Shown: positions 17,516-51,271, numbered from the stretch's first letter. The stretch is DNA of 64,000 bases from a virus (IMGVR_UViG_3300045988_119437:72768-136767), one strand, 5' to 3'. Notes: a model not told the origin generated them from the letters alone. Numbers and translations are program-made.

Positions 17516-17935
17516 ATGGACAACAATATTGACCCAAAGGTCGGAGAGGTTTGGTTGGTTGATCTATCCAATGCGACAGGTCATCAGCAGCGCGGTATTC
17601 GACCGTTCGTTGTGACGAGTAACAATAAGCGCAACTTCTTCAGTCCCACAATCAAAGGGAATCCGTTGTCTTCCAGAACATACAAGCGTTCTCCGGTTCA
17701 TGTCCTGCTCTCAAAGGAAGATTGCGATTTCCTAGAGGTTGACAGTATCGTTCTCTGTGAAGAGACTGACACACTTAACAAAGGGCAGTTTATCAAAAAG
17801 CTTGGTGTCTTGTCTGAGCGTCATATGAATATGATCGCAATGGCCAGATGCAAGGATGAACCGTTTTTGATCTCGGCGTTCGTGAGCGGCGTACAACATA
17901 CTATGGAATTTCAGAATTTTGCCGCATTTGCTTGA
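17516..17935 (+). CDS. MazF/PemK-family toxin-like endoribonuclease (no cognate antitoxin seen)
   Basis: GEVWLVDLSNATGHQQRGIRPFVVTS matches the PemK/MazF N-terminal beta-strand motif; own promoter and GGAGGAG RBS. Confidence 0.6.
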   Translation: MDNNIDPKVGEVWLVDLSNATGHQQRGIRPFVVTSNNKRNFFSPTIKGNPLSSRTYKRSPVHVLLSKEDCDFLEVDSIVLCEETDTLNKGQFIKKLGVLSERHMNMIAMARCKDEPFLISAFVSGVQHTMEFQNFAAFA

Positions 17936-17988
17936 TTTTTTATAAGGGTTAATGGTACACTACATATAATAAGAAGGAGTGTGCCATT

Positions 17989-18915
17989 ATGCTTACTGAA
18001 GAAAAGATCAACGCTTTTGCTGAAAAGTATTCTGATAGAAGCGGCGAGTTTGTTATATCGACACTTAACCATGTTATGGACTACGAAGCGGAGTGCGGGT
18101 ATGAGTTATTCGACTTCACAAAAGATGATTTTGTAAAGATGTTTGCCAAATACAATTGGGTAAACTCAAGTCGTTCATTCAGAAATGTGAAATCGATAAT
18201 CACTGGTTATATCAAGAACGAAAATCGTACAAGCATGTATGATTTGGCTGAATTCTCAGAGAGCGATGTGAGTTCAGACAATATGTACGAGGACAAGTAT
18301 TTTGCATCGGTTGATGAGTTTGTTGGTTTCTTAAACAAGTATGAAGAAGCGTATCAGATTCGTATGAATGTGATTGCTGTTTTGTACTGGATCGGTCTTA
18401 CTTCTAGTGAGGTTTCTAATCTAACAATTAACGATGTAGACTTTGAATCTCGTACTGTCCTCGATAGGACTGATGTTGACGCAAGGTTGATGGATATCAT
18501 CAAGCAGTGTTATGAAATGAAACAGTATGATGCGCCCAATATGGGAGGATACAGAACATTTTATGTCATAAATGGTGATTACATTCTTCGTAAAACAGAG
18601 GATAGAACTGGTGTAGACAGCGACCCGAAGATGTCTGTAAATACAATCCATAGTTATTTTGTGAGGCTGAATGACATTCTCGAAAAAAGACATCATACAA
18701 AGATTTTAGATCGAAGACATCTGACCAGAAATGGTGAGTATGTGAAGGTCTACGATTACTGTAAGAGTAATTCAGAGTTCAACCTTGCGGAGCTTAGTTT
18801 CGGAAATGGTAAAAAACCTCTTGCAGACATTATTGGAAGAAAGTGTAGCAAGGTAGCTTACATTAGTTTCCGGCAGGGATACAAGGGCTGGGTCGAATAC
18901 TTCCACAAAAATTAA
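17989..18915 (+). CDS. hypothetical protein (308 aa)
   Basis: ORF behind TATAAT box at 17967 and AAGGAG RBS; weak integrase-like segment LYWIGLTSSEV. Confidence 0.55.
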   Translation: MLTEEKINAFAEKYSDRSGEFVISTLNHVMDYEAECGYELFDFTKDDFVKMFAKYNWVNSSRSFRNVKSIITGYIKNENRTSMYDLAEFSESDVSSDNMYEDKYFASVDEFVGFLNKYEEAYQIRMNVIAVLYWIGLTSSEVSNLTINDVDFESRTVLDRTDVDARLMDIIKQCYEMKQYDAPNMGGYRTFYVINGDYILRKTEDRTGVDSDPKMSVNTIHSYFVRLNDILEKRHHTKILDRRHLTRNGEYVKVYDYCKSNSEFNLAELSFGNGKKPLADIIGRKCSKVAYISFRQGYKGWVEYFHKN

Positions 18916-18920
18916 AAACA

Positions 18921-18944
18921 GGGGGCTTCGGCCCCTTGATTTTA
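18921..18944 (+). terminator. rho-independent terminator
   Basis: GGGGC-TTCG-GCCCC hairpin followed by TTGATTTTAAC. Confidence 0.6.
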
Positions 18945-18952
18945 ACATCATA

Positions 18953-18972
18953 ACTATATGACACAGGATACT
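18953..18972 (+). promoter_or_regulatory. conserved motif copy (AACTATATGACACAGGATAC)
   Basis: Reverse-orientation copy of GTATCCTGTRTWATATAG, about 80 nt upstream of gene 19050. Confidence 0.45.
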
Positions 18973-19049
18973 AAACTAAAATAGACATTTTATGAAGAAT
19001 TGGAAATAAATAAATAGCGATAATACGTTGATAAAAAGGAGAGAAAACG

Positions 19050-20276
19050 ATGAGAACTTTGCTTCTTTTCCGTGGAGCACCAGGATGCGGGAAGTCCACC
19101 TATATTAAAGAGCATGATCTGGAAAAGTATACGCTTAGTGCCGATACGATTCGCCTTATGTGTCAGGGTGGTCAGGAAACCCCGGCTGGCACAATGGAAA
19201 TCTCTCCCCAGAACGATGATGTTGTCTGGGATATGCTCTTTAAACTGTTGGAGGTTCGGATGTCTCACGGTGAATTTACCGTGATTGATGCAACGAACTC
19301 TAAAACTGTTGAAATCAATCGCTATAAGAATCTTGCAAAGCAGTACAGATACAGAATGTACATCATCGACATGACTGATTTGCCGATTGATGAGTGTAAA
19401 CGGCGTAATGCGCTTCGTGCTCCTCTGAAGCGAGTTCCAGATGCTGCTATTGATAAGATGTATGCGCGATTTGCTACACAGAAGATTCCGTCTGGTGTGA
19501 CTGTACTTTCGTCAGATATAAATGTCCTTGAGAAATTGAACTATGTTCCGCAGGACTTTAGCAACTGGAACAAAATTCATATCATCGGTGATGTACATGG
19601 ATGTTACAGTTGCTTGAAAGAGTACCTTGGTGACCTGAAGGATGATGAACTGTACATTTTTGTTGGTGATTATCTGGATCGCGGTATTGAGAATGTAGAG
19701 ATGTTCAAGTTCCTTTGTGATGTTGTAGACAATAATCGGAAGAATGTAATTCTCCTTGAAGGAAATCACGAACGGTGGCTGAACAAGTGGGGCCATGATG
19801 AACCGGTTCAGAGCGAGGAGTTCGCAAACTACACTCGTCCGCAGCTTTTCAAAGCAGGGATTGACCATAATACGGCTCGTAAGGTTTATTCGAGAGTAGG
19901 ACAGTGCTCCTATTTTGATTACGACGAGAAAAGATACTTCGTTAGCCATGGTGGTTTGAGTTATTTGCCTGAATTTCTACCATTCGTGTCTACTGACCAG
20001 ATGGTAAAGGGTGTTGGTCGCTATCCTGATATGCTAACCGTGGCTGAGTCTTGGGAAAAATCGATGCCGGATAGCTACATTCAGATATTCGGTCATCGAA
20101 ATGTGCAGGATGTTCCTATTGATATGGGGCATCGGTGCTACAACCTCGAAGGAAAAATCGAGTTTGGTGGATATCTCCGTTGCGTGGAACTTGAACACGG
20201 TCAGTCAATCAAATGTGTAGAAACAAAGAATGATGTGTTCCGAAAAGAGGAGTCAAAGACTGAAACTACCGTTTAA
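19050..20276 (+). CDS. polynucleotide kinase-phosphatase (Pnkp-like: P-loop kinase + calcineurin-type phosphoesterase)
   Basis: N-terminal FRGAPGCGKST Walker A; C-terminal GDVHGC, GDYLDRG, GNHE metallophosphoesterase motifs. Confidence 0.7.
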   Translation: MRTLLLFRGAPGCGKSTYIKEHDLEKYTLSADTIRLMCQGGQETPAGTMEISPQNDDVVWDMLFKLLEVRMSHGEFTVIDATNSKTVEINRYKNLAKQYRYRMYIIDMTDLPIDECKRRNALRAPLKRVPDAAIDKMYARFATQKIPSGVTVLSSDINVLEKLNYVPQDFSNWNKIHIIGDVHGCYSCLKEYLGDLKDDELYIFVGDYLDRGIENVEMFKFLCDVVDNNRKNVILLEGNHERWLNKWGHDEPVQSEEFANYTRPQLFKAGIDHNTARKVYSRVGQCSYFDYDEKRYFVSHGGLSYLPEFLPFVSTDQMVKGVGRYPDMLTVAESWEKSMPDSYIQIFGHRNVQDVPIDMGHRCYNLEGKIEFGGYLRCVELEHGQSIKCVETKNDVFRKEESKTETTV

Positions 20277-35519: not shown

Positions 35520-38500
35520 ATGTCAGATAATTTTGTAAATCTTCATGTACATACAGCGCAGGGTTCGTTACTTGACTCTATTCTTACCGTCAAGGAACTT
35601 GTAAACTTTGCCAAAGAAAATGGCCAGAAAGCAATCGCGGTTACAGACCACGGAAAAATGCACTCTTTTGTTGACCAAGTTAAGGCTTGCAAGGAAGCAG
35701 GTATTAAGCCTATCATCGGCTGTGAAGTCTATGAAGTAGATAATCAGGCAGAGAAAGCCGATACAAAAGACTATAAACAACCTCGTTACCATCTTGTTTT
35801 ACTAGCAAAGAACGAGACCGGTTTAAAAAATCTATTTAAGATTGTTTCAAATGCTTGCGTTGATGGTATGTATAAAAAGCCTCGAACTTCTTTGAACATT
35901 ATTGAACAGAACGAGTGGGGTAAAGGTATCATCTGTCTTACAGCCTGTCAAGTTGGTCGAATGAGTAGATTACTTGTTGATGGCAACGAGACTGAAGCAT
36001 GGCAGTTATGGAACAAACTGGAATGGATCTTTGATGACGTGTTTATGGAAGTACAGTCACATGATACGCCAGATCAAGCTGAGGCCAATGCAAAAATTGC
36101 GGCGTTTATTAGGAAATACGACTTGCCGTATACCATTACGACCGATGCTCACATGCTTTCTAAAGAAGATATTGATGCACACTCTGTCTTTGTTGAGATT
36201 GGAGAAGGCCGAGAAGTTGGTGAAAGCTACGTTGACTGCTATCTTCAGACTGAAAACGATGTTTTGAGAACGCTATCAAAGCAGTTTGATGAGGACTTTA
36301 TCAAAAAAGGCTGTGAGATGTCTGTGAAAATCGCAGACATGATTGATGATATCGATATCGGTCTTGGACAGCCGAACCAGATGCCAGAAGTGAAAATTGA
36401 GGGAAAATTTGATTCTCATTTTGATTATCTTCGGCACCTTGTATATGCCACTTTTAATAAAAAATTCGGGTGGATGAGTGAAGTGGAACAGCAAACCCGG
36501 CGGAATCGTATTGAGATGGAACTGGATGTTTTGAAGTATGTTGATTATATTGACTATTTCATTATGCTGTATATGCTTTGCAAAAAGGCTGATGAACGCA
36601 AAATTCCTCGTGGGTACTCTCGTGGTTCTGGCGCAAATTGTCTTTGCCTTTTTATGGAGAATGTTACTCAGATTGACTCTGTTCGTTGGGATCTTGACTT
36701 CTCTCGCTTTGCAAACAAAGGTAGAAAGAGCCTGGCCGACTTCGACTTCGATGTCTCTAAACGTCGTCGAAAGGAACTTATTGCTATTGCAGAAGAACTT
36801 TTCGGCAAAGAAAATGTTGCTCCTATCGCTACGTTTAACTCTTTGTCTACAAAAGTTGCCATCAAAGATATTGGCAAAGTTCTGAACGAAGACCCAGAAA
36901 GCCCGTATTATATGCAGATTCCGTATGAATTACGTAATGAGGTCGCCAAGTTAATTCCGACTGTAAAAACGCTGGATGATCTTGGCGAAGAAGTTGAAAA
37001 GGAAGTTCTACTAAAGGATATCCTCGGAAAGAGTGAACAGCTTTCTAATGTATATGACAAGTTTCCTCTATGGTTCAAATACGTTATGCGTCTTGAGGGT
37101 CTGCCTAAGAGTATGGGTCGCCATGCTGCCGGTACATTGATTACGCCCAAGCCTGTCATTGAATATTGTCCTCTTTGTATGGACAGAGAAGGCAATCAGA
37201 TGTGCCAACTTGAGATGCACAATGCCATGGATGATTTGTCGCTGGTCAAGATGGACTTCCTTGGTCTTGAGAATCTGGACATTATTGACGATACGTTAAA
37301 GATGGCTGGATTAACATGGGAAGATGTCGATATCAACCATCTTGATCTAAGTGATAAGGCTGTCTATGATACCGTCTACAAGTCGGGCAACACAATTGGC
37401 ATTTTCCAGATGGAATCTGCAGAAGCACGAAAGATGTGTGTTGAAGCAAAGTGCGATAATGCTGAGGATATCATTGTTGTGAACGCAGCGAATCGTCCTG
37501 GTACTAAGGACAGCTTCCCGACGTATTGCTCCAATAAACTTCATCCAGAGACTATCAAACTACTCCATCCTGACATCAAACAGCTTTTTGCTAAGACGCA
37601 ATACATTCTTCTTTATCAGGAACAGGCACTAGCGGTATTCCGCTATGCAGGATTCCCTGAAACTGAGGTTGACAATGCTCGTCGTGCTATCGGCAAGAAA
37701 AAGAAAGATGTTATGGCATCCTTGGAAGTTCAGTTCCGAGATGGTCTTCACAAGAAAGGATGGAATGATTACCAGATTTCTGAGATGTGGGCACTAATCT
37801 TGAAGCAGGCTTCTTATTCCTTTAATAGAGGCCACGCAGTTGCGTATGGACTTCTTTCTTACCTGACGGCTTACCTGAAAACTCATTATACTGAGTATTT
37901 CATGGCTGCGTGTATGATTACCAAGGAAGACGATTCTGGCAAAATGGGTGTGTTTATCAACGAATGCGACCGTCTACATATTCGTGTCCTTCCTCCAAGT
38001 GTCAACAAGTCTGATATGGAATTTAAGGCTGATGCGGAAAAGCACACAATCCTGTTTGGTTTGAAAGCCATTAAGGGAATGGGTGAGAGTGTCGCTTCAG
38101 GAGTGATTGCAGACCGTCCATATTCTGGACTGGCAGACTTTGTTCAGAGAGCAAACGGTGGTAAGATTGGAACCTCAAATGTTGTCAAGTTGATTAAGGC
38201 TGGCGCTATCCCGACAAAGGATAAGAAAAAAATCTTAATCACTTTTGCAAATATGGTTTTTGAGAATGAGTATAAAGAGAAAGGATTCCATGAGATGGCG
38301 TCTCTCCCTAAGATTTCCATTCTTAAAGACGAATACGGCATTGATACGGACTCTGTTAAAGACAAACCAACCAGACTTGCCTTATATAATAAGGTAAGAA
38401 GGGAGCGCTGGGAAGCGGGCACATGGAATCGAAAGAAAGAAAAAGACAAAAAGCGGAATGCATTTATGCAGGCGTTTGCTGAAAAGTATATGCAAGACGA

Positions 38501-38864
38501 GCACATGTGGGAATTTGAAACTCTTTCAATGTTTTTGACTAGCAATCCCATTAAGGATGCTTGCACCTATATTGATGCTGGTCTTGATACTGTAGAGGAT
38601 GGCGGTAAGGCAACTGCTATTTGTGTCATCGTAGATATCCAAAAAAAGAAGGATAAACGTGGCAACCAGTTTGCGTACTTACATGTTTACACGACAGGTG
38701 GTATTGTCGAAATGATTTGTTGGGCATCTCAGTATGCACGATATTCAAGTCTGATTTCAAAGGGTAACGATCTTGCAATCCTTTGCAAGAGAAAAGAAAA
38801 TTCGTACATTGTTGAGAAGATGAAGCCTTATAAGCAGTGGCTGCATGATAGAGAGATAGCGTAA
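35520..38864 (+). CDS. DNA polymerase III alpha subunit (PHP + polymerase core)
   Basis: PHP motif NLHVHTAQGSLLDS, catalytic LADFDFDV, 1114 aa. Confidence 0.85.
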   Translation: MSDNFVNLHVHTAQGSLLDSILTVKELVNFAKENGQKAIAVTDHGKMHSFVDQVKACKEAGIKPIIGCEVYEVDNQAEKADTKDYKQPRYHLVLLAKNETGLKNLFKIVSNACVDGMYKKPRTSLNIIEQNEWGKGIICLTACQVGRMSRLLVDGNETEAWQLWNKLEWIFDDVFMEVQSHDTPDQAEANAKIAAFIRKYDLPYTITTDAHMLSKEDIDAHSVFVEIGEGREVGESYVDCYLQTENDVLRTLSKQFDEDFIKKGCEMSVKIADMIDDIDIGLGQPNQMPEVKIEGKFDSHFDYLRHLVYATFNKKFGWMSEVEQQTRRNRIEMELDVLKYVDYIDYFIMLYMLCKKADERKIPRGYSRGSGANCLCLFMENVTQIDSVRWDLDFSRFANKGRKSLADFDFDVSKRRRKELIAIAEELFGKENVAPIATFNSLSTKVAIKDIGKVLNEDPESPYYMQIPYELRNEVAKLIPTVKTLDDLGEEVEKEVLLKDILGKSEQLSNVYDKFPLWFKYVMRLEGLPKSMGRHAAGTLITPKPVIEYCPLCMDREGNQMCQLEMHNAMDDLSLVKMDFLGLENLDIIDDTLKMAGLTWEDVDINHLDLSDKAVYDTVYKSGNTIGIFQMESAEARKMCVEAKCDNAEDIIVVNAANRPGTKDSFPTYCSNKLHPETIKLLHPDIKQLFAKTQYILLYQEQALAVFRYAGFPETEVDNARRAIGKKKKDVMASLEVQFRDGLHKKGWNDYQISEMWALILKQASYSFNRGHAVAYGLLSYLTAYLKTHYTEYFMAACMITKEDDSGKMGVFINECDRLHIRVLPPSVNKSDMEFKADAEKHTILFGLKAIKGMGESVASGVIADRPYSGLADFVQRANGGKIGTSNVVKLIKAGAIPTKDKKKILITFANMVFENEYKEKGFHEMASLPKISILKDEYGIDTDSVKDKPTRLALYNKVRRERWEAGTWNRKKEKDKKRNAFMQAFAEKYMQDEHMWEFETLSMFLTSNPIKDACTYIDAGLDTVEDGGKATAICVIVDIQKKKDKRGNQFAYLHVYTTGGIVEMICWASQYARYSSLISKGNDLAILCKRKENSYIVEKMKPYKQWLHDREIA

Positions 38865-38876
38865 GAGGGTTATAAA

Positions 38877-41800
38877 GTGGCAGATAAAAAATTCAATGAA
38901 AATATGATCCGTTGCTACATCAGGATAAAACGAGTCTTTTATCCGAAAGATGGGAGGGAGGTGGAGCCCGGCGGCTTCGCCACTTTCTCTGCCGAGGTGG
39001 TAAAAGTCAAGCAGGGAAATCCTGTTATGAGTCGATACAGTGACCTCCGGTTAAAGGGCAACGTTCCTAGCCTCGATATGAATAAAACTTATTCGTTCTG
39101 TGGTGAGTATGTTCATCATGAAAAGTTTGGTGACCAGTATAAAATCATTTATATGAATGAGTTTCAAGAGATTACTGACCCGGAAGAACAGAAAAGCTTT
39201 CTCCATTATATCCTGACCGACCATCAGTTTGAGATACTTTATGAAGCATTCGAAAATCCGTATGAGATTATCAAGAATGGTGATATCAAGTCGCTTTGCA
39301 CTGTTAGTGGTATTACGGAAGGCAGAGCTCAAAAGATCATTGATACTTATGAAAACAACATTGATAACAGTGATGCGTACACAAAGCTAATTGAGTACGG
39401 TCTGACCCCTAGTGCTATTGAAAAGCTTGTCCGTCAATATCATGGTGCAGACACTCTGGTGAGAAAGATTGAAGAGAATCCTTACGTCCTGATTGACGAT
39501 GTGTATGGCATCGGCTGGAAGAAGGCTGACGCTCTAGCTCTGAATATGGGGTTGAAACACAATTCGCAATTTAGAATTGAAGCTTACGTCATGCACTTTC
39601 TTGCTGGCCGTGCCGAAGAAGGCAACTCTATCATCTCGGCAAACCAGACAATCAATAGCTGTATTAAGGAACTTGATTTGAATGAGGGTGACCAAGAAGT
39701 CATCAAAAGGGCACTTTTCCATTTGCATGATGCTCGTGAAACGCTTTGGTGGAGCGATGACCGTCAGGAATTTGCTTTAACTAGAGTGTGGAATCTGGAA
39801 GATAGTATTGCGAAGGAAATCAAGCGTCTGGCGGATGTTCCTGTTGAGCCGATTGGTCGAAATATGGATGCAGCAATCAATGAGGCCGAGGATGAACTTG
39901 GTATCGAGTACACTGAAGAGCAGAGAGATGCTATTAAAAAGGTATGCTCTAGCAACGTCTGTATCTTAACAGGTTACGGCGGATGCCTTGATGCAGAGAT
40001 GGAGTTCTTTAATGGTATCCAATGGAAAAAAATAAAAGATTATGTTAAGGGCGACAAAGTTCTTCAATATAATGAAAATGGGACTACAACGCTTGTTGAG
40101 CCTGAGAAATATGTAAAATTTAAATGTGAATATCTATATCACATGAAAAACAAGTCGGGCAGTATCAATCAACTATTGAGTGCAGAGCATAATGTTGTTT
40201 ACTTGACCAGCAAAAACAATTTAGCTAAAATCCCAATGTGGGAGTTGTATCAAAGAAATGTTAAACGAAAGTCTGGGTTTAACGGACATTTTATAACAAC
40301 GTTCAATTATGATGGTCCAGGAATCGATTTGAGCGATGCTGATATTAGACTAATGTGTGCTGTTATTTGCGATGGGTCGTTTTTGAAGGATCATAAATCA
40401 GCTTGGTGTAGAGTAAACGTAAAAAAAGAGCGAAAGAAACTTCGCATGAGAAGACTTCTTTTGGAAAGTGGTAGATACTTTGATGAGCATCAGTGGAATC
40501 CAAAAGACTTGGAATATTCGAACTTTGTCTTTTATGCTCCAAGAAAAGAAAAAAGATTTACTTCGTATTGGTATAGCTGTAATCATCATCAGCTAGAGGT
40601 GATTTGCGATGAGATTCTAAATTGGGACGGTCACGTAAAAGAGGGGAGACGGAAAGATTTTAGTACACTGATTAAAGAAACGGCAGATTTTGTTCAGTTC
40701 GCATTTTCTTCTTGTGGTTATCGTTCTGTTGTACATGAATCAAATATTGAACGGCACGGTAGAATGGTCACAGAGTATAATGTTCATATTGTGCAACACT
40801 CGAATGGAAAAGTTTCTCTTATGACAAAAGGCAGTAAAAGCGATATTGATATTGTTCGTTCAAGCGATGGATATAAGTATTGTTTTACGGTTCCGTCTCA
40901 TATGTTTCTGATAAGATATAATGGAAGAATTTGTGTCACAGGCAACACCGGTAAAAGTACCGTTGTCGCTGGTGTTCTAAAGGTCCTTCACGGTAAGTCT
41001 TTCGCTCAGACTGCACTCTCTGGACGTGCCGCAGCTCGTATGCAGGAGATTACTGGTCAGGACGGGAAGACCATTCATCGTCTTCTTGGTTATGATATTG
41101 AGAATGGTGGTTTCATTCATAACAAGGACAATCCTCTTGAAGAAGATATTATCATTCTGGATGAGACATCTATGGTTGGAGCTCAGTTGTTCTATGACTT
41201 GATTCAGGCAATCGAGACCGGAAAGCGATTCATCATGATTGGTGATGACGGACAGCTTGAGAGCATCGGTATGTGTAACATTTTCAAGGATATGCTTGCA
41301 TCTAAGGTTGTTCCTGTGGCTCGGTTGACTAAGATCCATCGTCAGGCAGCTAAGTCTGCAATTATCACGGAGAGCATCAAGGTTCGCAATGCTACGCAAT
41401 TGGTGCCTTATGGCTGGGCTGGTAGTGAGATTCGTGGTGAACTTCGTGATTTGGAGCTTGATATCTATAAAGATGCAAGTGAGTCATTCAATCACATCAT
41501 CAATCAGTACCGTACCTTATATAATAAGGTAGGGAATGATAGTGCGAAGATTCAGATTGTACTTCCACAGAAGCTGCGTGGTAGTATCTGTACTTATGAA
41601 GTCAATAATGCTATTCAGGAAATTGTGAATCCGAGTCGTGGTCAAGCAGAAGCAAAGGTCACAATCTATGGTGATGGCAAGGATAGAGTGTATACTCTGC
41701 GTGAGGGCGATCAAGTCATTATCAACAAGAACAATTATGAACTTCACACATACAATCTCAAGACAAAGAAAAAGGAAGAGAAGTGTCCGGTGTTCAACGG

Positions 41801-42170
41801 AAACCGTGGCATTATCCGAAAGATTGAGACTAGTTTTATTCTGGTTGATTTTGACCAATGGGGAACGATCTTCATTCCGCATTACTTTGGTGGGAATAAC
41901 ATCTGGGCAACGCTTGAACTTGCTTATGCTTTAAGTTGTCATAAACTACAGGGCAGTGAGGCTCCGTATGTGATTGTTGGTATGGACAACTCTGCATACC
42001 TGATGCTGACGAGAGAATGGCTCTATACGGCCATTACTCGTGCCAAGAAGTATTGTGTGATTTGCGCCGAAACTCATGCTCTTGATCGGGCTGTAAAGAC
42101 TTCGAGGGTGCCATACAAGCGGACGTTCTTGAAGGAATTTTTACGGAAAGAATTTTCAGAAAAGCATTGA
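38877..42170 (+). CDS. RecD2-like SF1 DNA helicase with HhH N-domain; Walker A interrupted by an intein
   Basis: GTG start; GIGWKKADALA HhH; ILTGYGG|intein|TGKSTVV rebuilds GxxGxGKST; C-terminal helicase motifs. Confidence 0.75.
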   Translation: MADKKFNENMIRCYIRIKRVFYPKDGREVEPGGFATFSAEVVKVKQGNPVMSRYSDLRLKGNVPSLDMNKTYSFCGEYVHHEKFGDQYKIIYMNEFQEITDPEEQKSFLHYILTDHQFEILYEAFENPYEIIKNGDIKSLCTVSGITEGRAQKIIDTYENNIDNSDAYTKLIEYGLTPSAIEKLVRQYHGADTLVRKIEENPYVLIDDVYGIGWKKADALALNMGLKHNSQFRIEAYVMHFLAGRAEEGNSIISANQTINSCIKELDLNEGDQEVIKRALFHLHDARETLWWSDDRQEFALTRVWNLEDSIAKEIKRLADVPVEPIGRNMDAAINEAEDELGIEYTEEQRDAIKKVCSSNVCILTGYGGCLDAEMEFFNGIQWKKIKDYVKGDKVLQYNENGTTTLVEPEKYVKFKCEYLYHMKNKSGSINQLLSAEHNVVYLTSKNNLAKIPMWELYQRNVKRKSGFNGHFITTFNYDGPGIDLSDADIRLMCAVICDGSFLKDHKSAWCRVNVKKERKKLRMRRLLLESGRYFDEHQWNPKDLEYSNFVFYAPRKEKRFTSYWYSCNHHQLEVICDEILNWDGHVKEGRRKDFSTLIKETADFVQFAFSSCGYRSVVHESNIERHGRMVTEYNVHIVQHSNGKVSLMTKGSKSDIDIVRSSDGYKYCFTVPSHMFLIRYNGRICVTGNTGKSTVVAGVLKVLHGKSFAQTALSGRAAARMQEITGQDGKTIHRLLGYDIENGGFIHNKDNPLEEDIIILDETSMVGAQLFYDLIQAIETGKRFIMIGDDGQLESIGMCNIFKDMLASKVVPVARLTKIHRQAAKSAIITESIKVRNATQLVPYGWAGSEIRGELRDLELDIYKDASESFNHIINQYRTLYNKVGNDSAKIQIVLPQKLRGSICTYEVNNAIQEIVNPSRGQAEAKVTIYGDGKDRVYTLREGDQVIINKNNYELHTYNLKTKKKEEKCPVFNGNRGIIRKIETSFILVDFDQWGTIFIPHYFGGNNIWATLELAYALSCHKLQGSEAPYVIVGMDNSAYLMLTREWLYTAITRAKKYCVICAETHALDRAVKTSRVPYKRTFLKEFLRKEFSEKH
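39984..40946 (+). mobile_element. intein (321 aa) with LAGLIDADG-type homing endonuclease core
   Basis: Starts with Cys after GYGG, block B SAEHN, LMCAVICDGSF LAGLIDADG-like motif, ends ...VTGN followed by T. Confidence 0.65.
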
Positions 42171-42343: not shown

Positions 42344-43657
42344 ATGACAGATAAAGAGCTCATAGGTAAGCTTGATGCGATGGTTAAGGCATTGCAGAAA
42401 GCAAAGAAAAAGACGGACAAGACCCGCATTTTGCTGGATGCACGTAAGGATTTTGGAGATGAAGCTGATGAGTTAATGGCATTCTTCCGATTCCTGCTTG
42501 ACCCGGCAATTGTTACTGGCCTGTCTAATGCAAAGATCAATAAGAAGGTAACCGCAAGGCCGGATTTCGATGTTCAGTATCTCAGCTGCGGATACCTTTA
42601 TATTATGGGTGCTAGTCACAATACAGGCTCTGATACATCCATCGCAACAATCCAGAATTATTTACATAAAAATCCTGAATACGAAGAGTTTCTGAAACGA
42701 CTGTTCACTAAGAACCTGCCGATCGGAGTCGAGGCAGCTACCATCAATAAGGTGTACGGCGAAGAGATTGTTCCTGTCTGGGAGGTACAGCAGGGATATC
42801 CGATTGACAAGGTTAAACTGAAGCGGGATGAAATGATTTTTGTATCGCGCAAATTAAATGGAGTGCGCGGCACCTTTATCAATGGTCAGTTCATTTCCAG
42901 ACAGGCGCAAAAGTTTACTGGACTTGACCACATTATCAACGATATTAAAAATACTGGCTATTTTGGTTATGTATTTGATGGAGAGTTAATTCGTAAGAAT
43001 GTCGATGGTCTGTCAGATAACAAAAATTTCGTTGTTGGGACAGGCATTATTAACAGCGATTCTACAGATAAGAGCTGCATCAAGTTCGTAATTTTCGATA
43101 TGGTTCTACAGAGACAGTTTGAAAATGACGAATGTGTTGAACGGTATTCAGTTCGTAAACAGCGGCTTCTTGAGCTGAAAGAGAAAATCAAGCAGCACAA
43201 TCTTCAAAACATTGAAGTTGTCGAGATGGTCTACGAAGGAACCGACCATTCACAGATTGCTAAATGGCTTGATTATGCTGTTGCAAATGACTGGGAAGGA
43301 CTTGTCTGTAACAGAGATGTCCCTTACCGCCGGGCACGACATAATGGATGCCTGAAAGTAAAACGTTTTTATACTGTTGACCTGCGAATCATCGCGATTG
43401 AGGAAGGTCAGAACCGTCTGGCTGGCACGACGGGAGCTCTCGTTGTGGACTACAAGGGTAATGAGCTACGCATTGGCTCTGGCTTTGATGACGCTACGAG
43501 AGCTACTGTGTGGGCGAATCCTGATGACTACATTGGCAAGATTGTTGAGTGTAAATACAAAGAGGTCAGCTGTGACAAGAAAACTGGCGCTGAGTCCCTG
43601 CAATTCCCGACCTTTGTAAGATTTAGAGATGACAAGAACGAGGTGTCTTATGCCTAA
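42344..43657 (+). CDS. ATP-dependent DNA ligase
   Basis: Motif I KLNGVR (KxDGxR-type), III FDGEL, IV FVIFDM, V EGLVC, VI LKVKR. Confidence 0.7.
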   Translation: MTDKELIGKLDAMVKALQKAKKKTDKTRILLDARKDFGDEADELMAFFRFLLDPAIVTGLSNAKINKKVTARPDFDVQYLSCGYLYIMGASHNTGSDTSIATIQNYLHKNPEYEEFLKRLFTKNLPIGVEAATINKVYGEEIVPVWEVQQGYPIDKVKLKRDEMIFVSRKLNGVRGTFINGQFISRQAQKFTGLDHIINDIKNTGYFGYVFDGELIRKNVDGLSDNKNFVVGTGIINSDSTDKSCIKFVIFDMVLQRQFENDECVERYSVRKQRLLELKEKIKQHNLQNIEVVEMVYEGTDHSQIAKWLDYAVANDWEGLVCNRDVPYRRARHNGCLKVKRFYTVDLRIIAIEEGQNRLAGTTGALVVDYKGNELRIGSGFDDATRATVWANPDDYIGKIVECKYKEVSCDKKTGAESLQFPTFVRFRDDKNEVSYA

Positions 43658-47409: not shown

Positions 47410-47534
47410 GAGGTTTACATAAATGAGAATGAGATACAACTGGGAAGAACCATTTGCGGCATTTGCCCTGTTTGTTACAATGTTGATTTTTGGCTTTGCC
47501 AAATTTGTTTTAAGATAATCAAGGAGAAAAATAC

Positions 47535-49058
47535 ATGAATATGATGTTTATTGCAATTCCTGTCGTTGTTGTCTTTCTGATCGCCTTTGCATTTACTTGC
47601 TATAAGAAGGCTCCTCCTACTCAGGCAATCGTCGTAACAGGTTTTGGACTGTCTAAGCCGAAAGTTATCTGTGGTCGTGGCGTGTTCGTCCTTCCGGTTA
47701 TTCAGCGAGCTGACCGTCTGAATATGCGATTGCTCAAGATTGATGTCAAGACTCCTGAAACCGGTGTAAAGACTAAAGAGGGTGTTTCTCTGTGGCTGGA
47801 CTCTGTTGTTACTGTTCAGGTTTACTCTGAGAACTCTACTGTAACTGATGATGAGATTAAGAGTGCCGGTTGTGAGGATGCAAAGACTTATATTAGTGCT
47901 CGTCAGCAGGCTGCTATTTCCAACTTCCTTGGCATGAGTGAAGATGGCATTAACGAAAAGATCAACGATGTCCTTCAGGGCAATCTGCGAGAGATTGTTT
48001 CTGAGATGACTGTCAATGATATCCTGACCAATCGTAAACAGATGGCAATTTCCGTTGTTGAGAATGCTCGTCCTGATTTAGCAAAGATGGGTCTGGAAGT
48101 TGTTACTTTCAATGTTCAGGATATTAAGGATGCTATTGATGCTCAGGGTCATAATCATGGTGTCATTGAGGCAATTGGTGTTCAGCAGGAAGAGCTGGTG
48201 AAGAAACAGGCAGAGATTGCTAAGGCCGAAGCCGCTCGTGATATTGCTCGTGCTAAGGCGGATACTGCTCGTGAATCAAATGAAAAGGAAATTGAATCCA
48301 AGACCGCTATTGCACAGCGCAACAATGAGTATCTTCTGACTCAGGCCGCTCTGAAGGCGGAGGCTGATAAGGCAAATGCTGATGCAGAAGCTGCTGGTGA
48401 GATTCAAATGAATCTGCGTGATAAGGAAATTAAGGAAGCTGAAGCTGACGCAGCTATTGCAAAGCAGAAGAAGATGGTTGAGTTGGCCGCTCAGGAAGCA
48501 GAAGTTCGTCAGCAAAAGCTGGATGCGGAGATTCGCAAGCAGGCAGACGCCGACCTGTATAAGCGTCAGAAGGAAGCTGAAGCAAAGAAGTACGAAGCAG
48601 AGCGTTCTGCAGAATCCGCAAAGTTCGCTAAGGAACAGGAGGCAGAAGGCATCCGTATGGTTGGCATGGCGGAAGCTGAGGCCATCAGGCAGAAGGGTCT
48701 TGCTGAAGCAGAAGCTATGCTGAAGAAGGCCGAAGCTTACAAGCAGTACAATGGTGCGGCTATGGGTGAAATGATCATTAAGATTCTTCCTAGCATTGCA
48801 GCTGAGGTTGCAAAGCCGCTGGCGTCCATTGACAAGGTTTCCATCATTGGCAGTAACGCAAATGGTGTTTCTGAGATTTCCGGCAATGTCCCAGCAGTCA
48901 TGGCTCAGACTTTTGAGGCCGTTCGTGAAGCAACTGGCATTGATATGAAGGAAATTGTCCGTGCCAACAGTTACGATGCAAAGGTCACTAAGAATGTGAA
49001 CCTTGTAAGCGATTCGACGATTGTTTCTGAAAAGAACGATGCGCAGGATGCTGAGTAA
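47535..49058 (+). CDS. flotillin-like SPFH/band-7 protein
   Basis: N-terminal TM segment, SPFH domain, long EA-rich coiled coil (EAEAEAIRQKGLAEAEAM). Confidence 0.65.
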   Translation: MNMMFIAIPVVVVFLIAFAFTCYKKAPPTQAIVVTGFGLSKPKVICGRGVFVLPVIQRADRLNMRLLKIDVKTPETGVKTKEGVSLWLDSVVTVQVYSENSTVTDDEIKSAGCEDAKTYISARQQAAISNFLGMSEDGINEKINDVLQGNLREIVSEMTVNDILTNRKQMAISVVENARPDLAKMGLEVVTFNVQDIKDAIDAQGHNHGVIEAIGVQQEELVKKQAEIAKAEAARDIARAKADTARESNEKEIESKTAIAQRNNEYLLTQAALKAEADKANADAEAAGEIQMNLRDKEIKEAEADAAIAKQKKMVELAAQEAEVRQQKLDAEIRKQADADLYKRQKEAEAKKYEAERSAESAKFAKEQEAEGIRMVGMAEAEAIRQKGLAEAEAMLKKAEAYKQYNGAAMGEMIIKILPSIAAEVAKPLASIDKVSIIGSNANGVSEISGNVPAVMAQTFEAVREATGIDMKEIVRANSYDAKVTKNVNLVSDSTIVSEKNDAQDAE

Positions 49059-49069
49059 GAGGTGATTAC

Positions 49070-51271
49070 ATGGAATATGTGATTAAACGCGATGGAACGG
49101 AAGTCCCTTTTGATAAAAGTAAGATTGTGAATGCAGTCGAGAAGGCGATGACCTGTACACCGGGTAGTATCGACGCTCGTGTGTCGAATGCGATTGCTGA
49201 CTATATCGCAGACATGCCGGGCATTCTTTCTGTTGAGCAGATTCAGGATATCGTAGTGGACAGTCTAGCAAATAGCCCGTTTATTGACGTTGCAAATGCA
49301 TATAGTCAGTGGCGGCAGTATCGTCAGGAAATTCGAGATAAAGAGAAAACCAACGCAAGTATTCTTGAAATTCTTGATGCCCAGAACGACGCAATCAATC
49401 AGGAAAACAGTAATAAGAACGCAACCATCAATAGCACGCAACGTGATTACATGGCCGGAGAGGTATCTAAGGAACTAACTGACAGACTTCTACTTCCAAA
49501 GGATATCCGAGATGCACACAAAAGTGGTTTAATTCATGTGCATGATAAAGATTATTTTGTGATGCACTGCCATAATTGCGATCTGGTCAATCTTGAAGAT
49601 ATGCTCCAGAACGGCACCGTCATCTCCGGCACCTATATTGAAAAACCTCACAGCTTTTCCACCGCCTGCAACATTGCCACCCAGATCATTGCACAGGTAG
49701 CTTCGATGCAATTTGGAGGTCAGAGTATTACACTTTCACATCTGGCTCCATTCGTAGATGTTTCCCGCAAGAAGATCACAAGTGAAGTACACCAAGAATT
49801 TTACGAGATGGTTCAGAATAATGAAATCGATAAGATGCCGGAGTCTGAAACTATCAATCGAATTGTAGAAGATCGTTTACATAAAGAAATTGCTCGTGGC
49901 GTGCAGACCATCCAGTATCAGGTTGTCACTTTGATGACGACAAACGGCCAGGCCCCTTTTATCACCGTGTTTATGTACCTCGATGAAGTTCCAGAAGGTC
50001 AAACTCGTGATGATTTGGCTCTAATTGTTGAAGAAGTGTTAAAACAGCGCATTCAGGGTGTAAAGAATGAAGTTGGTGTATGGGTCACTCCGGCCTTCCC
50101 AAAGCTCATTTATGCTCTTGATGAGGATAACATTCATTCTGATTCTAAGTATTATTACCTGACTGAGCTGGCAGCTAAGTGTACTGCCAAGCGAATGGTT
50201 CCTGATTATATTTCCGCAAAGGTTATGAAGGAGCTTAAAGGCGGTGTGTGGCCTAGCATGGGCTGTAGATCCTTCCTTACTCCTGACCGCACCACTGAGA
50301 ACGTAGCTAGTGCCAAGAATTGGGTTAAGGGGCATAAGTATTATGGCCGCTTCAATCAGGGCGTCGTGACCATCAATCTGGTGGACGTGGCTTGCAGTTC
50401 AGAAGGGGACAAGGATAAATTCTGGAAAATCTTCGATGAACGACTCGAATTGTGTCATCGAGCTCTACAGATTCGTCACAAGCGTCTACTCGGCACTTCT
50501 TCTGATATGGCCCCTATCCTGTGGCAGTACGGTGCATTAGCTCGTCTAAAGAAGGGCGAGAAGATCGACAAGTTGCTCTTCGGCGGCTACTCCACCATCA
50601 GCCTGGGTTATGCCGGTCTGTATGAGTGTGTGAAGTATATGACCGGCAAGAGCCACACCGATCCTGATGCTAAACCTTTTGCTCTCGAAATTATGCGGCA
50701 CATGAATGATAAGTGTAACGAGTGGAAGGCCGCTGAAAACATCGATTACTCTCTGTATGGTACTCCTTTGGAGTCCACTACATATGAATTTGCACGTTGC
50801 TTGCAGAAGCGGTTTGGTATGATTCCAGATATTACTGACCATGACTACGTAACAAATTCTTATCATGTCGTTGTCCGTGAACATATCGATGCTTTCACTA
50901 AGCTAAAGTTTGAGAGCGAGTTCCAGAAGCTTTCTCCAGGAGGGGCGATTAGCTATATCGAGGTGCCAAATCTGCAGCAGAACATTCCTGCGGTGCTTAG
51001 TGTTATGCAGTTCATTTACGACAACATCATGTATGCGGAGCTGAACACCAAGTCCGACTACTGCCAGTGCTGCGGCTACGACGGCGAAATTAAAATTGTA
51101 GAAGATGAGAAAAACCACAAGCTTATATGGGAGTGCCCGAATTGTGGTAATCGTGACCAGAACAAAATGAATGTCGTAAGACGTACTTGTGGTTACCTGG
51201 GAACCAATTTTTGGAATCAGGGGCGCACTCAGGAAATTCGAGATCGAGTGGTTCATTTGAGCGACAATTAA
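49070..51271 (+). CDS. nrdD: anaerobic ribonucleoside-triphosphate reductase NrdD (class III)
   Basis: N-terminal ATP-cone, C-terminal zinc ribbon CQCCGY...CPNCGN and glycyl-radical motif RTCGYLG. Confidence 0.85.
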   Translation: MEYVIKRDGTEVPFDKSKIVNAVEKAMTCTPGSIDARVSNAIADYIADMPGILSVEQIQDIVVDSLANSPFIDVANAYSQWRQYRQEIRDKEKTNASILEILDAQNDAINQENSNKNATINSTQRDYMAGEVSKELTDRLLLPKDIRDAHKSGLIHVHDKDYFVMHCHNCDLVNLEDMLQNGTVISGTYIEKPHSFSTACNIATQIIAQVASMQFGGQSITLSHLAPFVDVSRKKITSEVHQEFYEMVQNNEIDKMPESETINRIVEDRLHKEIARGVQTIQYQVVTLMTTNGQAPFITVFMYLDEVPEGQTRDDLALIVEEVLKQRIQGVKNEVGVWVTPAFPKLIYALDEDNIHSDSKYYYLTELAAKCTAKRMVPDYISAKVMKELKGGVWPSMGCRSFLTPDRTTENVASAKNWVKGHKYYGRFNQGVVTINLVDVACSSEGDKDKFWKIFDERLELCHRALQIRHKRLLGTSSDMAPILWQYGALARLKKGEKIDKLLFGGYSTISLGYAGLYECVKYMTGKSHTDPDAKPFALEIMRHMNDKCNEWKAAENIDYSLYGTPLESTTYEFARCLQKRFGMIPDITDHDYVTNSYHVVVREHIDAFTKLKFESEFQKLSPGGAISYIEVPNLQQNIPAVLSVMQFIYDNIMYAELNTKSDYCQCCGYDGEIKIVEDEKNHKLIWECPNCGNRDQNKMNVVRRTCGYLGTNFWNQGRTQEIRDRVVHLSDN

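Follow-up and report, generated by a model that had tools for sequence, protein, structure and literature searches.

The window analysed here, a 64,000-nucleotide (nt) stretch of phage DNA (IMGVR_UViG_3300045988_119437:72768-136767), contains a gene for a RecD2-like helicase in which 321 amino acids (aa) are inserted into the middle of the Walker A motif. This locus raises the question what the insert is, how a functional helicase could be made from such a gene, and whether the element is still on the move. We conclude that it is very probably a genuine and currently mobile intein, in which a Hint splicing domain carries a LAGLIDADG homing endonuclease. The conclusion is based on the fold of the insert, its set of catalytic residues, an exact presence/absence polymorphism and a signature of recent spread, from which we infer splicing and DNA cleavage. 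Inteins in P-loops are well known in general (PMC4760082, PMC5050341), and the element is of this known kind, an endonuclease-bearing P-loop intein, of which the window copy was previously unannotated.

The precursor open reading frame (ORF) begins with a GTG start codon, with an AGAGGG ribosome-binding site 8 nt 5' of the start, and its exteins contain the Pfam domains OB_YrrC, HHH_RecD2, AAA_30, AAA_19, SH3_13 and UvrD_C_2. The RecD2 model TIGR01448 matched the precursor (E 5.9e-139, 464 bits), with the match broken into two stretches. Removal of the insert in silico yielded a 776-aa protein that matched TIGR01448 in one stretch, with 489.5 bits (equivalog cut-off 500); the E values obtained for the helicase were about 1e-139 to 1e-146. 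With the full RecD2 domain set and a score just below the cut-off, the label 'RecD2-like' seems appropriate. The best solved match of the spliced extein was RecD2 of D. radiodurans (3e1s, E 4.6e-39), and the spliced product ...ILTGYGGTGKSTVV... aligned without gaps with the Walker A motif of 3e1s, LVVLTGGPGTGKSTT, across LTGyGGTGKST. An earlier interpretation of the locus (the sequence-only reading) had proposed a RecD2-like host, and a superfamily 1 (SF1) Walker A motif that is rebuilt by splicing. The former is borne out by AAA_30, HHH_RecD2, SH3_13, UvrD_C_2 and TIGR01448, and the latter by the gap-free alignment and the one-stretch match. Its coordinates of the ORF and the insert, the extein ends and the residues were all exact on recheck.

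Alleles with and without the insert occur in closely related phages. A homologue search with the spliced extein returned both an intein-carrying protein (P0039; 1097 aa, 97% identical, cluster of 348 sequences) and an intein-free protein (P0040; 776 aa, 95% identical, cluster of 2046), in which the sequence runs on contiguously as ...IVTGLGGCGKST.... The Walker A motif is also unbroken in 82%-identical and more distant homologues. The contig that encodes P0040, hereafter L001, is 88-94% identical to the window at 25.5-50.6 kb. Its DNA aligns to window positions 38862-39986 and picks up again at 40949, a clean absence of exactly the 963 nt of the insert. This comparison with intein-free RecD homologues, which had been suggested as a check, places the insertion point inside the Walker A motif, at a site that is empty in close homologues. 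Rebuilding of the Walker A motif by chance was ruled out by the empty-site allele and by the alignment of the spliced product to a solved RecD2.

The two alleles differ most strongly around the junction. A 60-nt interval across the junction has an identity of 0.75 between L001 and the window, which is the lowest in the gene (elsewhere ~0.92). Of the 30 nt upstream of the junction, 13 are mismatched, as are 5 of the first 6 nt downstream. Judged from this alignment, the diverged flank probably represents co-conversion of the donor flanks and part of the homing site.

The predicted fold of the insert is that of an intein. An AlphaFold (AF2) model built from the homologue alignment reached a predicted local distance difference test score (pLDDT) of 95.1 and a predicted template modelling score (pTM) of 0.92. 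In this model, beta-rich N- and C-terminal lobes surround a repeated alpha-beta-beta-alpha-beta-beta-alpha domain. The top Foldseek matches in the PDB were endonuclease-containing inteins, namely Tli VMA (7qsu, E 5.5e-16), PI-PfuI, PI-SceI, Pho VMA and 2cw7. These intein matches had a probability of 1.00, query-normalised template modelling (TM) scores of 0.59-0.68 and E values from 5.5e-16 to 4e-9. The LAGLIDADG domains of I-DmoI, I-Tsp061I and WhiA ranked next (E ~1e-5), followed by the AceL NrdHF mini-intein. Hence, the proposal of an intein with a LAGLIDADG core was confirmed as a Hint fold with an inserted endonuclease.

The catalytic set of the window copy is complete, comprising Cys1, Ser66-x-x-His69, Asp130, Asp215, Asn321 and Thr+1. 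The insert starts with Cys, ends with V-T-G-N followed by Thr+1, and interrupts the Walker A motif as GYGG^TGKST (the caret marks a splice junction or insertion point throughout). The sequence-only reading had named a 321-aa insert with the initial Cys, SAEHN, LMCAVICDGSF and a terminal VTGN followed by Thr, and each of these was confirmed, with SAEHN spanning residues 66-70 and LMCAVICDGSF residues 123-133 of the insert. Stop codons are absent from the insert's own frame, whereas each of the five alternative frames has 9-34. The GC content of the insert is 35.7% versus 43.2% in the exteins.

Several observations weigh against an active intein. A Pfam search of the insert (E ≤ 1) gave nothing, including the intein and LAGLIDADG models, and an NCBIfam search (E ≤ 10) found no intein model, only a spurious YcgN. 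The Pfam model Intein_splicing gave a weak match (E 0.0031) in 1 of 33 relatives. Furthermore, the window lineage is atypical in having Met at block A:6 (Thr in at least 90% of the family) and Leu2 instead of Val. The diverged flank could also reflect endonuclease-resistant variants of the target rather than co-conversion.

The sole direct profile match of the insert was PHROG 32482 'PhoH-like' (E 6e-47, profile positions 76-405 of 589), a profile that has evidently absorbed the same insert. Searches with phmmer against PDB sequences found no match for the insert, nor for its C-terminal 41 residues. A profile of the insert's family, run against all PDB sequences with or without the endonuclease domain, found one intein only, AceL NrdHF, at E 1.2e-6 and 2.4e-6. 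Pfam LAGLIDADG_3 matched 12 of 33 family members, and the window copy was not among them. The profile search for intein blocks that had been advised thus had a divided outcome: Pfam and NCBIfam found none in the window copy, and the identification as an intein came from the fold search, the family profile and the LAGLIDADG_3 matches.

The signature of recent spread was found by comparison with L004-L006, three phage genomes from IMG/VR (90-112 kb) that have this intein in recD2 at the identical site. The intein differs from theirs by 1.9-2.1% of its nucleotides and the exteins by 7.6-11.8% (Fisher p 5e-11 to 5e-24), such that the intein DNA is 4-6x less diverged than the host gene among these intein-carrying relatives. 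Recent homing classically leaves behind an intein that is younger than the gene around it, and the lower divergence of the intein therefore points to recent transfer rather than to old decay. Codon differences in the exteins are predominantly synonymous in the three relatives, with synonymous:nonsynonymous counts of 69:23 to 121:10; for L004, the N-extein has 72:18 and the C-extein 74:9. Within the intein, the codon changes are also mostly synonymous (14:6, 13:5 and 11:8). The codon counts imply that the exteins of intein-carrying alleles are under purifying selection and that the helicase is probably still made in functional form. If the helicase is still selected in these alleles, the intein must be removed.

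In the series of events that we propose, the protein-level steps derive from the conserved residues and the relatives, and the DNA-level steps from the population evidence. The 1097-aa precursor, with its P-loop split, would be unable to bind ATP. Once the Hint domain has folded, a thioester would form at the Gly369-Cys1 bond, helped by Ser66 and His69 of block B, and the N-extein would be transferred to Thr+1. Asn321 would cyclise without a penultimate His and release the 321-aa intein, and ligation of the exteins (...ILTGYGG-TGKST...) would yield an active 776-aa helicase. The endonuclease of the freed intein would cut the P-loop-coding site of intein-free recD2 in related phages that infect the cell at the same time, and repair would copy the intein plus ~30 nt of flank into the cut allele.

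The insert belongs to a large family, which the sequence-only reading did not mention. A search for its homologues found 38 proteins that are 35-50% identical across all 321 aa and are set in many different hosts. With phmmer, 2051 proteins at E ≤ 0.001 were found among 1.84 billion cluster representatives, 524 of them at E ≤ 1e-30. A tblastn search located the family in 130 cultured phage genomes, including phages of Vibrio (78), Escherichia (12), Pseudomonas (10), Enterocloster (6), Bacillus (6) and Prevotella (6). An intein annotation was absent from all 30 listed tblastn matches in cultured phages. The closest cultured carriers are phages of Enterocloster bolteae. The DnaE ... RecD arrangement recurs in phage PMBT24, where the 'exodeoxyribonuclease V' (1108 aa) has the sequence LNAGAG^CVDSETE...ITGN^CGKTS. 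In GenBank, this protein (OQ326496.2; L002 4936-8262) contains a full intein copy without an intein note. The same holds for a DnaB-like 'hypothetical protein' of CB473P1 (OP172755.1; L003 2347-4818), a full copy without intein annotation. For genome annotation, this means that 1097-aa calls of 'exodeoxyribonuclease V' or 'hypothetical protein' in cultured phages represent a 776-aa helicase plus a selfish element, and that a family of ~2,000 cluster representatives has been missed by standard intein models.

Residue frequencies were determined from 74 unique IMG/VR copies, and 148 representatives gave the same picture. Cys1 is present in 74/74 copies (145/148 representatives) and Cys at block F:4 in 73/74 (147/148), while block B [S/T/C]xxH and the terminal Asn are conserved across the 74 and the 148 relatives. 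Position G:5 is Thr in 57 and Ser in 16 of the 74 copies, and position G:6 is Gly in 70, His in two and Ser in one. On the extein side, the -1 residue is Gly in 72/74, the +1 residue is Cys (31), Thr (27) or Ser (15), and the intein is followed by [C/S/T]GK[S/T/D] in 64/74. For intein biology, these frequencies represent a natural tolerance of Cys, Ser or Thr at +1, with Gly at -1.

The lack of the usual penultimate His, which is common and not obligatory in inteins, deserves attention, because the window copy has Gly320 at this position. Alignment of the family with AceL NrdHF by hhalign, using the AceL NrdHF sequence from the supplement of the paper, gave a probability of 94.3% (E 9.6e-8) and set YCFTVPS...VTGN over HCLSVPG...VTGN. 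It pairs Cys300 with Cys124 of AceL NrdHF and Thr319-Gly320-Asn321 with T144-G145-N146. In AceL NrdHF, the substitution G145H abolished splicing (PMC7891396). Phage inteins often have no penultimate His, and the Bethlehem RDF intein of a mycobacteriophage has Gly, where the change to His (G316H) slows splicing (PMC5050341). The penultimate Gly is a lineage trait of the family (T-G-N) and not a handicap, because two characterised inteins require or prefer Gly there. The sequence-only reading was right about the Gly in place of His. Its further suggestion that the Gly may need compensating residues did not stand, given a Gly in 70/74 of the family and the preference for it in two other inteins.

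The splicing class is less straightforward. Class 1 inteins use an N-terminal nucleophile, and class 3 inteins have no Cys at position 1 and a Cys at F:4 (PMC7891396 for class 3). In the window copy, Cys F:4 and Thr G:5 of class 3, which the sequence-only reading had passed over, are present, position 1 is occupied by Cys1 instead of being free of a nucleophile, and the Trp at block B:12 is missing (Val71 in the window copy; V, I, F, M or C across the family). By its residues, the family is operationally class 1, yet it shares two of three signature residues with class 3. This combination is unusual, because the class 3 triplet co-varies with the loss of the N-terminal nucleophile (PMC2807308).

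The same intein might instead follow the class 3 route, or a relay from Cys1 to Cys300, with a branched thioester on Cys300 before the transfer to Thr+1. In that case, Cys1 could be dispensable, a first relay station or a redox partner. We consider this a serious alternative, albeit less likely than not. It is suggested by the conservation of Cys F:4 at the level of Cys1, by Thr or Ser at G:5 in 73/74 copies, and by the fact that AceL NrdHF is the only characterised intein detectable by sequence. AceL NrdHF is experimentally class 3, with Cys124 as its branch-point nucleophile (PMC7891396), and it is on this residue that hhalign sets C300, with TGN set on T144-G145-N146. The two also share the CxxVP[G/S] of block F, and both are without His at F:13 and G:6. 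However, the near-invariance of Cys1 is at odds with a class that is defined by the lack of Cys1 (PMC7891396) and a triplet that is tied to nucleophile loss (PMC2807308). Moreover, Trp is missing at B:12, and the F:4 residue, usually Asp, assists in class 1 inteins, such that a conserved Cys need not be a nucleophile.

One natural relative, P0278 (480 aa), has Gly for Cys at position 1 (IINGSG^GVDCDTEFF...) and retains Cys F:4, T-G-N and Cys+1. Its residues suit the class 3 route. Possible explanations for it are a naturally occurring class 3-like variant without Cys1, an inactive copy or an error of sequencing.

It is improbable that the element is a conditional intein, in which redox or metal gating via Cys1 and Cys300, and possibly Cys317, would time RecD2 activity in an anaerobic gut host. 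The idea draws on the two invariant active-site cysteines and on the closest cultured carrier phages, which infect the anaerobe Enterocloster bolteae. P-loop inteins of DnaB are documented as sensors of redox state and zinc (PMC6195587, PMC7360933). The proposal is purely inferential, though, as the sequence does not set it apart from constitutive splicing. Furthermore, the intact endonuclease and the spread signature suit a selfish element, and the occurrence of the family in at least 17 unrelated host genes speaks against host-specific regulation.

A decayed, non-splicing remnant, tolerated as a domain insertion or inactivating the helicase, would fit the failure of standard intein profiles, the missing penultimate His, the atypical Met6 in block A and the existence of truly decayed relatives (P0300 ends TAD, P0306 ends TRS and P0032 ends SGA), but is highly improbable, since all catalytic positions are intact in the window copy, its ORF is fully open with mostly synonymous change, an SF1 helicase would lose its activity with a divided Walker A, yet the exteins are under purifying selection, and the intein is less diverged than its host gene, pointing to recent transfer. 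Two further candidates were rejected. The continuous stop-free frame and the Hint fold exclude a recD2 gene that is split by an intron or by an endonuclease gene of its own standing, and the +1 nucleophile, the terminal Asn and the conserved site in the host motif exclude a bacterial intein-like (BIL) domain.

The reading as a mobile, splicing intein leads to the question where else the family is inserted. Clustering of the exteins distinguished at least 17 unrelated host groups. The host types recognised by Pfam include RecD2, SNF2/DEAD helicases, DnaB/primase-helicases, the clamp-loader delta' subunit, terminases and PhoH, as well as DnaC/IstB, deoxynucleoside monophosphate (dNMP) and guanylate kinases, dNK, T2SSE, ABC ATPases and FtsK. 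In some hosts the intein lies outside a Walker A motif, namely in RecA (EG^TFD), RtcB (DIG^CGM) and the TSCPD domain of class II ribonucleotide reductase (RNR; TG^CGNLH). At the DNA level, conservation across hosts is confined to the codons for G^[C/S/T]-G-K-[S/T]. From these sites, the common denominator appears to be a glycine-rich loop, G^[C/S/T]G.

Some individual copies extend this range. One (L068; IMG/VR 3300028048_002897) lies in S-adenosylmethionine synthetase (MetK) at GGGAM^CGKDPTKVDR. Another (L072) lies in a VGCGIG motif resembling motif I of S-adenosylmethionine (SAM) methyltransferases; its extein is without a Pfam match and may be a methyltransferase. An 82-kb contig (IMG/VR 3300045988_104111) contains two family copies, L022 in a RecD-like protein and L077. 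An RNR (L051) carries a family intein together with an unrelated canonical intein (CLSGDTIIH...VVHN^C), and P0166 has three matched stretches in a single protein.

A broader hypothesis combines the cysteines with the sites. The family might be a natural 'two-cysteine' lineage bridging classes 1 and 3, in which both cysteines are needed or F:4 is the initiating one, and it might hop between unrelated nucleotide-binding proteins through generic recognition of G^[C/S/T]G, by the endonuclease or by splicing constraints. Candidate targets of such hopping are the Walker A motifs of at least 10 nucleoside triphosphatase (NTPase) families, the GGGAxSGKD loop of MetK, RtcB, the TSCPD domain of RNR and the VGCGIG motif. 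Taken as a whole, we rate this hypothesis as rather unlikely. In any case, the retention of both candidate initiating cysteines offers a ready test of the origin of class 3 chemistry.

Among known inteins, AceL NrdHF (PDB 6zgq, PMC7891396) shares with the window family the block B S-x-x-H-x-x-x-Y, the block F C-x-x-V-P-[G/S], the terminal V-T-G-N, the missing F:13 and G:6 histidines and a phage or metagenomic origin. It has Met at B:12, and so also deviates from the class 3 Trp. In contrast to the window intein, which is contiguous, starts with Cys1 and has an inserted LAGLIDADG domain and a Walker A site, AceL NrdHF is naturally split, starts with Ala1, resides in an nrdHF ribonucleotide reductase and is accompanied by a free-standing GIY-YIG endonuclease gene. 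The family would offer a compact, apparently active intein that, among characterised inteins, is most closely related to one of class 3 with fast and clean splicing.

The class 1 inteins PI-SceI, PI-PfuI and Tli/Pho VMA have the same arrangement of Hint and LAGLIDADG domains, in which the endonuclease is inserted between blocks B and F. Like the window copy, they begin with Cys and end with Asn. They differ in their low identity (10-13%), archaeal or yeast hosts, His-Asn termini, lack of Cys F:4, extra DNA-recognition regions and larger size (360-540 aa). The mycobacteriophage TerL1 (sites a and b), DnaB-b, MCM-a and RFC-a inteins are likewise inserted in Walker A motifs, of phage as well as cellular ATPases, many of them with LAGLIDADG domains (PMC5050341, PMC4760082), but have no detectable sequence similarity to the window family. 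The 'classic' P-loop site is GK^T, whereas the window family is inserted two residues upstream, at GxxG^[C/S/T]GK[S/T]. In Anaeramoeba, related copies of the class-3-like 'cluster 1' inteins occur in P-loops of non-homologous proteins, which was read as non-allelic spread, and a link with phages was noted (PMC10710043). Cluster 1 differs in its eukaryotic hosts and atypical N-terminal residues, and is likened to the window family by description, not by homology. What the present analysis adds lies at the level of the family: its invisibility to standard models, its kinship with class 3 in the presence of Cys1, the G^[C/S/T]G site in many hosts, and the evidence of homing from populations.

Table 1. 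Features of the helicase precursor and its intein, with positions counted from the first nucleotide of the window
Feature	Position	Strand	Basis
Precursor ORF, RecD2-like SF1B helicase with intein	38877..42170	+	1097 aa + stop; profile matches
N-extein, aa 1-369, ending ...VCILTGYGG (first half of Walker A)	38877..39983	+	aligned to 3e1s RecD2
Diverged flank, candidate co-conversion tract / part of homing site	39954..39983 plus 40947-40952	+	allele alignment
Intein, 321 aa, Cys1 to Asn321, ORF aa 370-690	39984..40946	+	ORF position, model, empty-site alignment
N-terminal lobe of Hint splicing domain, ~aa 1-106	39984..40301	+	model, family profile, alignment
Block A, CLDAEMEFFNG	39984-40016	+	
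Block B, LLSAEHNVVY (Ser66 = B:7, His69 = B:10)	40173-40202	+	
LAGLIDADG homing-endonuclease domain, ~aa 107-285, repeated alpha-beta-beta-alpha-beta-beta-alpha	40302..40838	+	predicted secondary structure; Foldseek I-DmoI, I-Tsp061I, WhiA E ~1e-5
LAGLIDADG motif 1, LMCAVICDGSF; presumed catalytic Asp130 at 40371-40373	40350..40382	+	D130 in at least 90% of family
LAGLIDADG motif 2, VICDEILNWDGHV, aa 206-218; presumed catalytic Asp215 at 40626-40628	40599..40637	+	D215, G216 in at least 90% of family
C-terminal lobe of Hint domain, aa 286-321	40839..40946	+	model, hhalign
Block F, YKYCFTVPSHMFLI	40872-40913	+	
Cys300, block F:4	40881..40883	+	hhalign to AceL NrdHF Cys124; conserved 73/74 and 147/148
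Block G, RICVTGN	40926-40946	+	
Thr319-Gly320-Asn321, intein C-terminus: Thr G:5, Gly G:6 replacing usual His, Asn G:7 cyclising residue	40938..40946	+	
C-extein, Thr+1-GKSTVV... to end, 407 aa + stop (second half of Walker A and remaining helicase core)	40947..42170	+	alignment, Pfam

The helicase gene is part of a phage replication module that makes up the window, with nearly all genes on the + strand. The module comprises a C5 methylase, a RecJ-like DHH protein, a Metallophos protein, a DnaE-type DNA polymerase III (Pol III) alpha subunit, the RecD2 precursor, an ATP-dependent DNA ligase (42344-43657), an SPFH/flotillin protein and the anaerobic RNR NrdD. A megablast search of GenBank phages with the gene and with 25 kb of the window gave no meaningful match, which places the phage itself outside this collection.

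The nrdD genes of the window and L001 also differ in an insert. In the window, nrdD (49070-51271) has an empty site at 49576^49577, within HCHN-CDLVNLE. In L001, nrdD (17657-20068) carries an insert of ~297 aa at this site, HMHN^CFKSNTRFVTDGG...YDAWCVEEPDTHSFTLDGGIVTGN^CDLVNLE. This insert, which likewise starts with Cys, has Cys at block F:4 and ends in T-G-N, looks like a second, different intein. With an insert in nrdD of L001 and an insert in recD2 of the window, the two phages have reciprocal intein sets. For phage evolution, near-identical phages with an intein in recD2 (window) versus nrdD (L001) would represent ongoing intein traffic in gut phage populations.

Two further differences between the window and L001 concern whole genes. 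The SPFH/Band 7-flotillin gene of the window (47535-49058, +; 507 aa), located between a small ORF and nrdD, is absent from L001, in which window positions 47446 and 49062 are only ~80 nt apart. The Pol III alpha gene (35520-38864, +; 1114 aa; PHP, pol3_alpha, finger and HHH_6 domains) is replaced in L001 (9714-9986) by ~270 nt with a Cys-rich ORF of 76 aa, in an otherwise syntenic region. In this comparison, the entire gene of a replicative polymerase looks like a cassette that is either present or absent.

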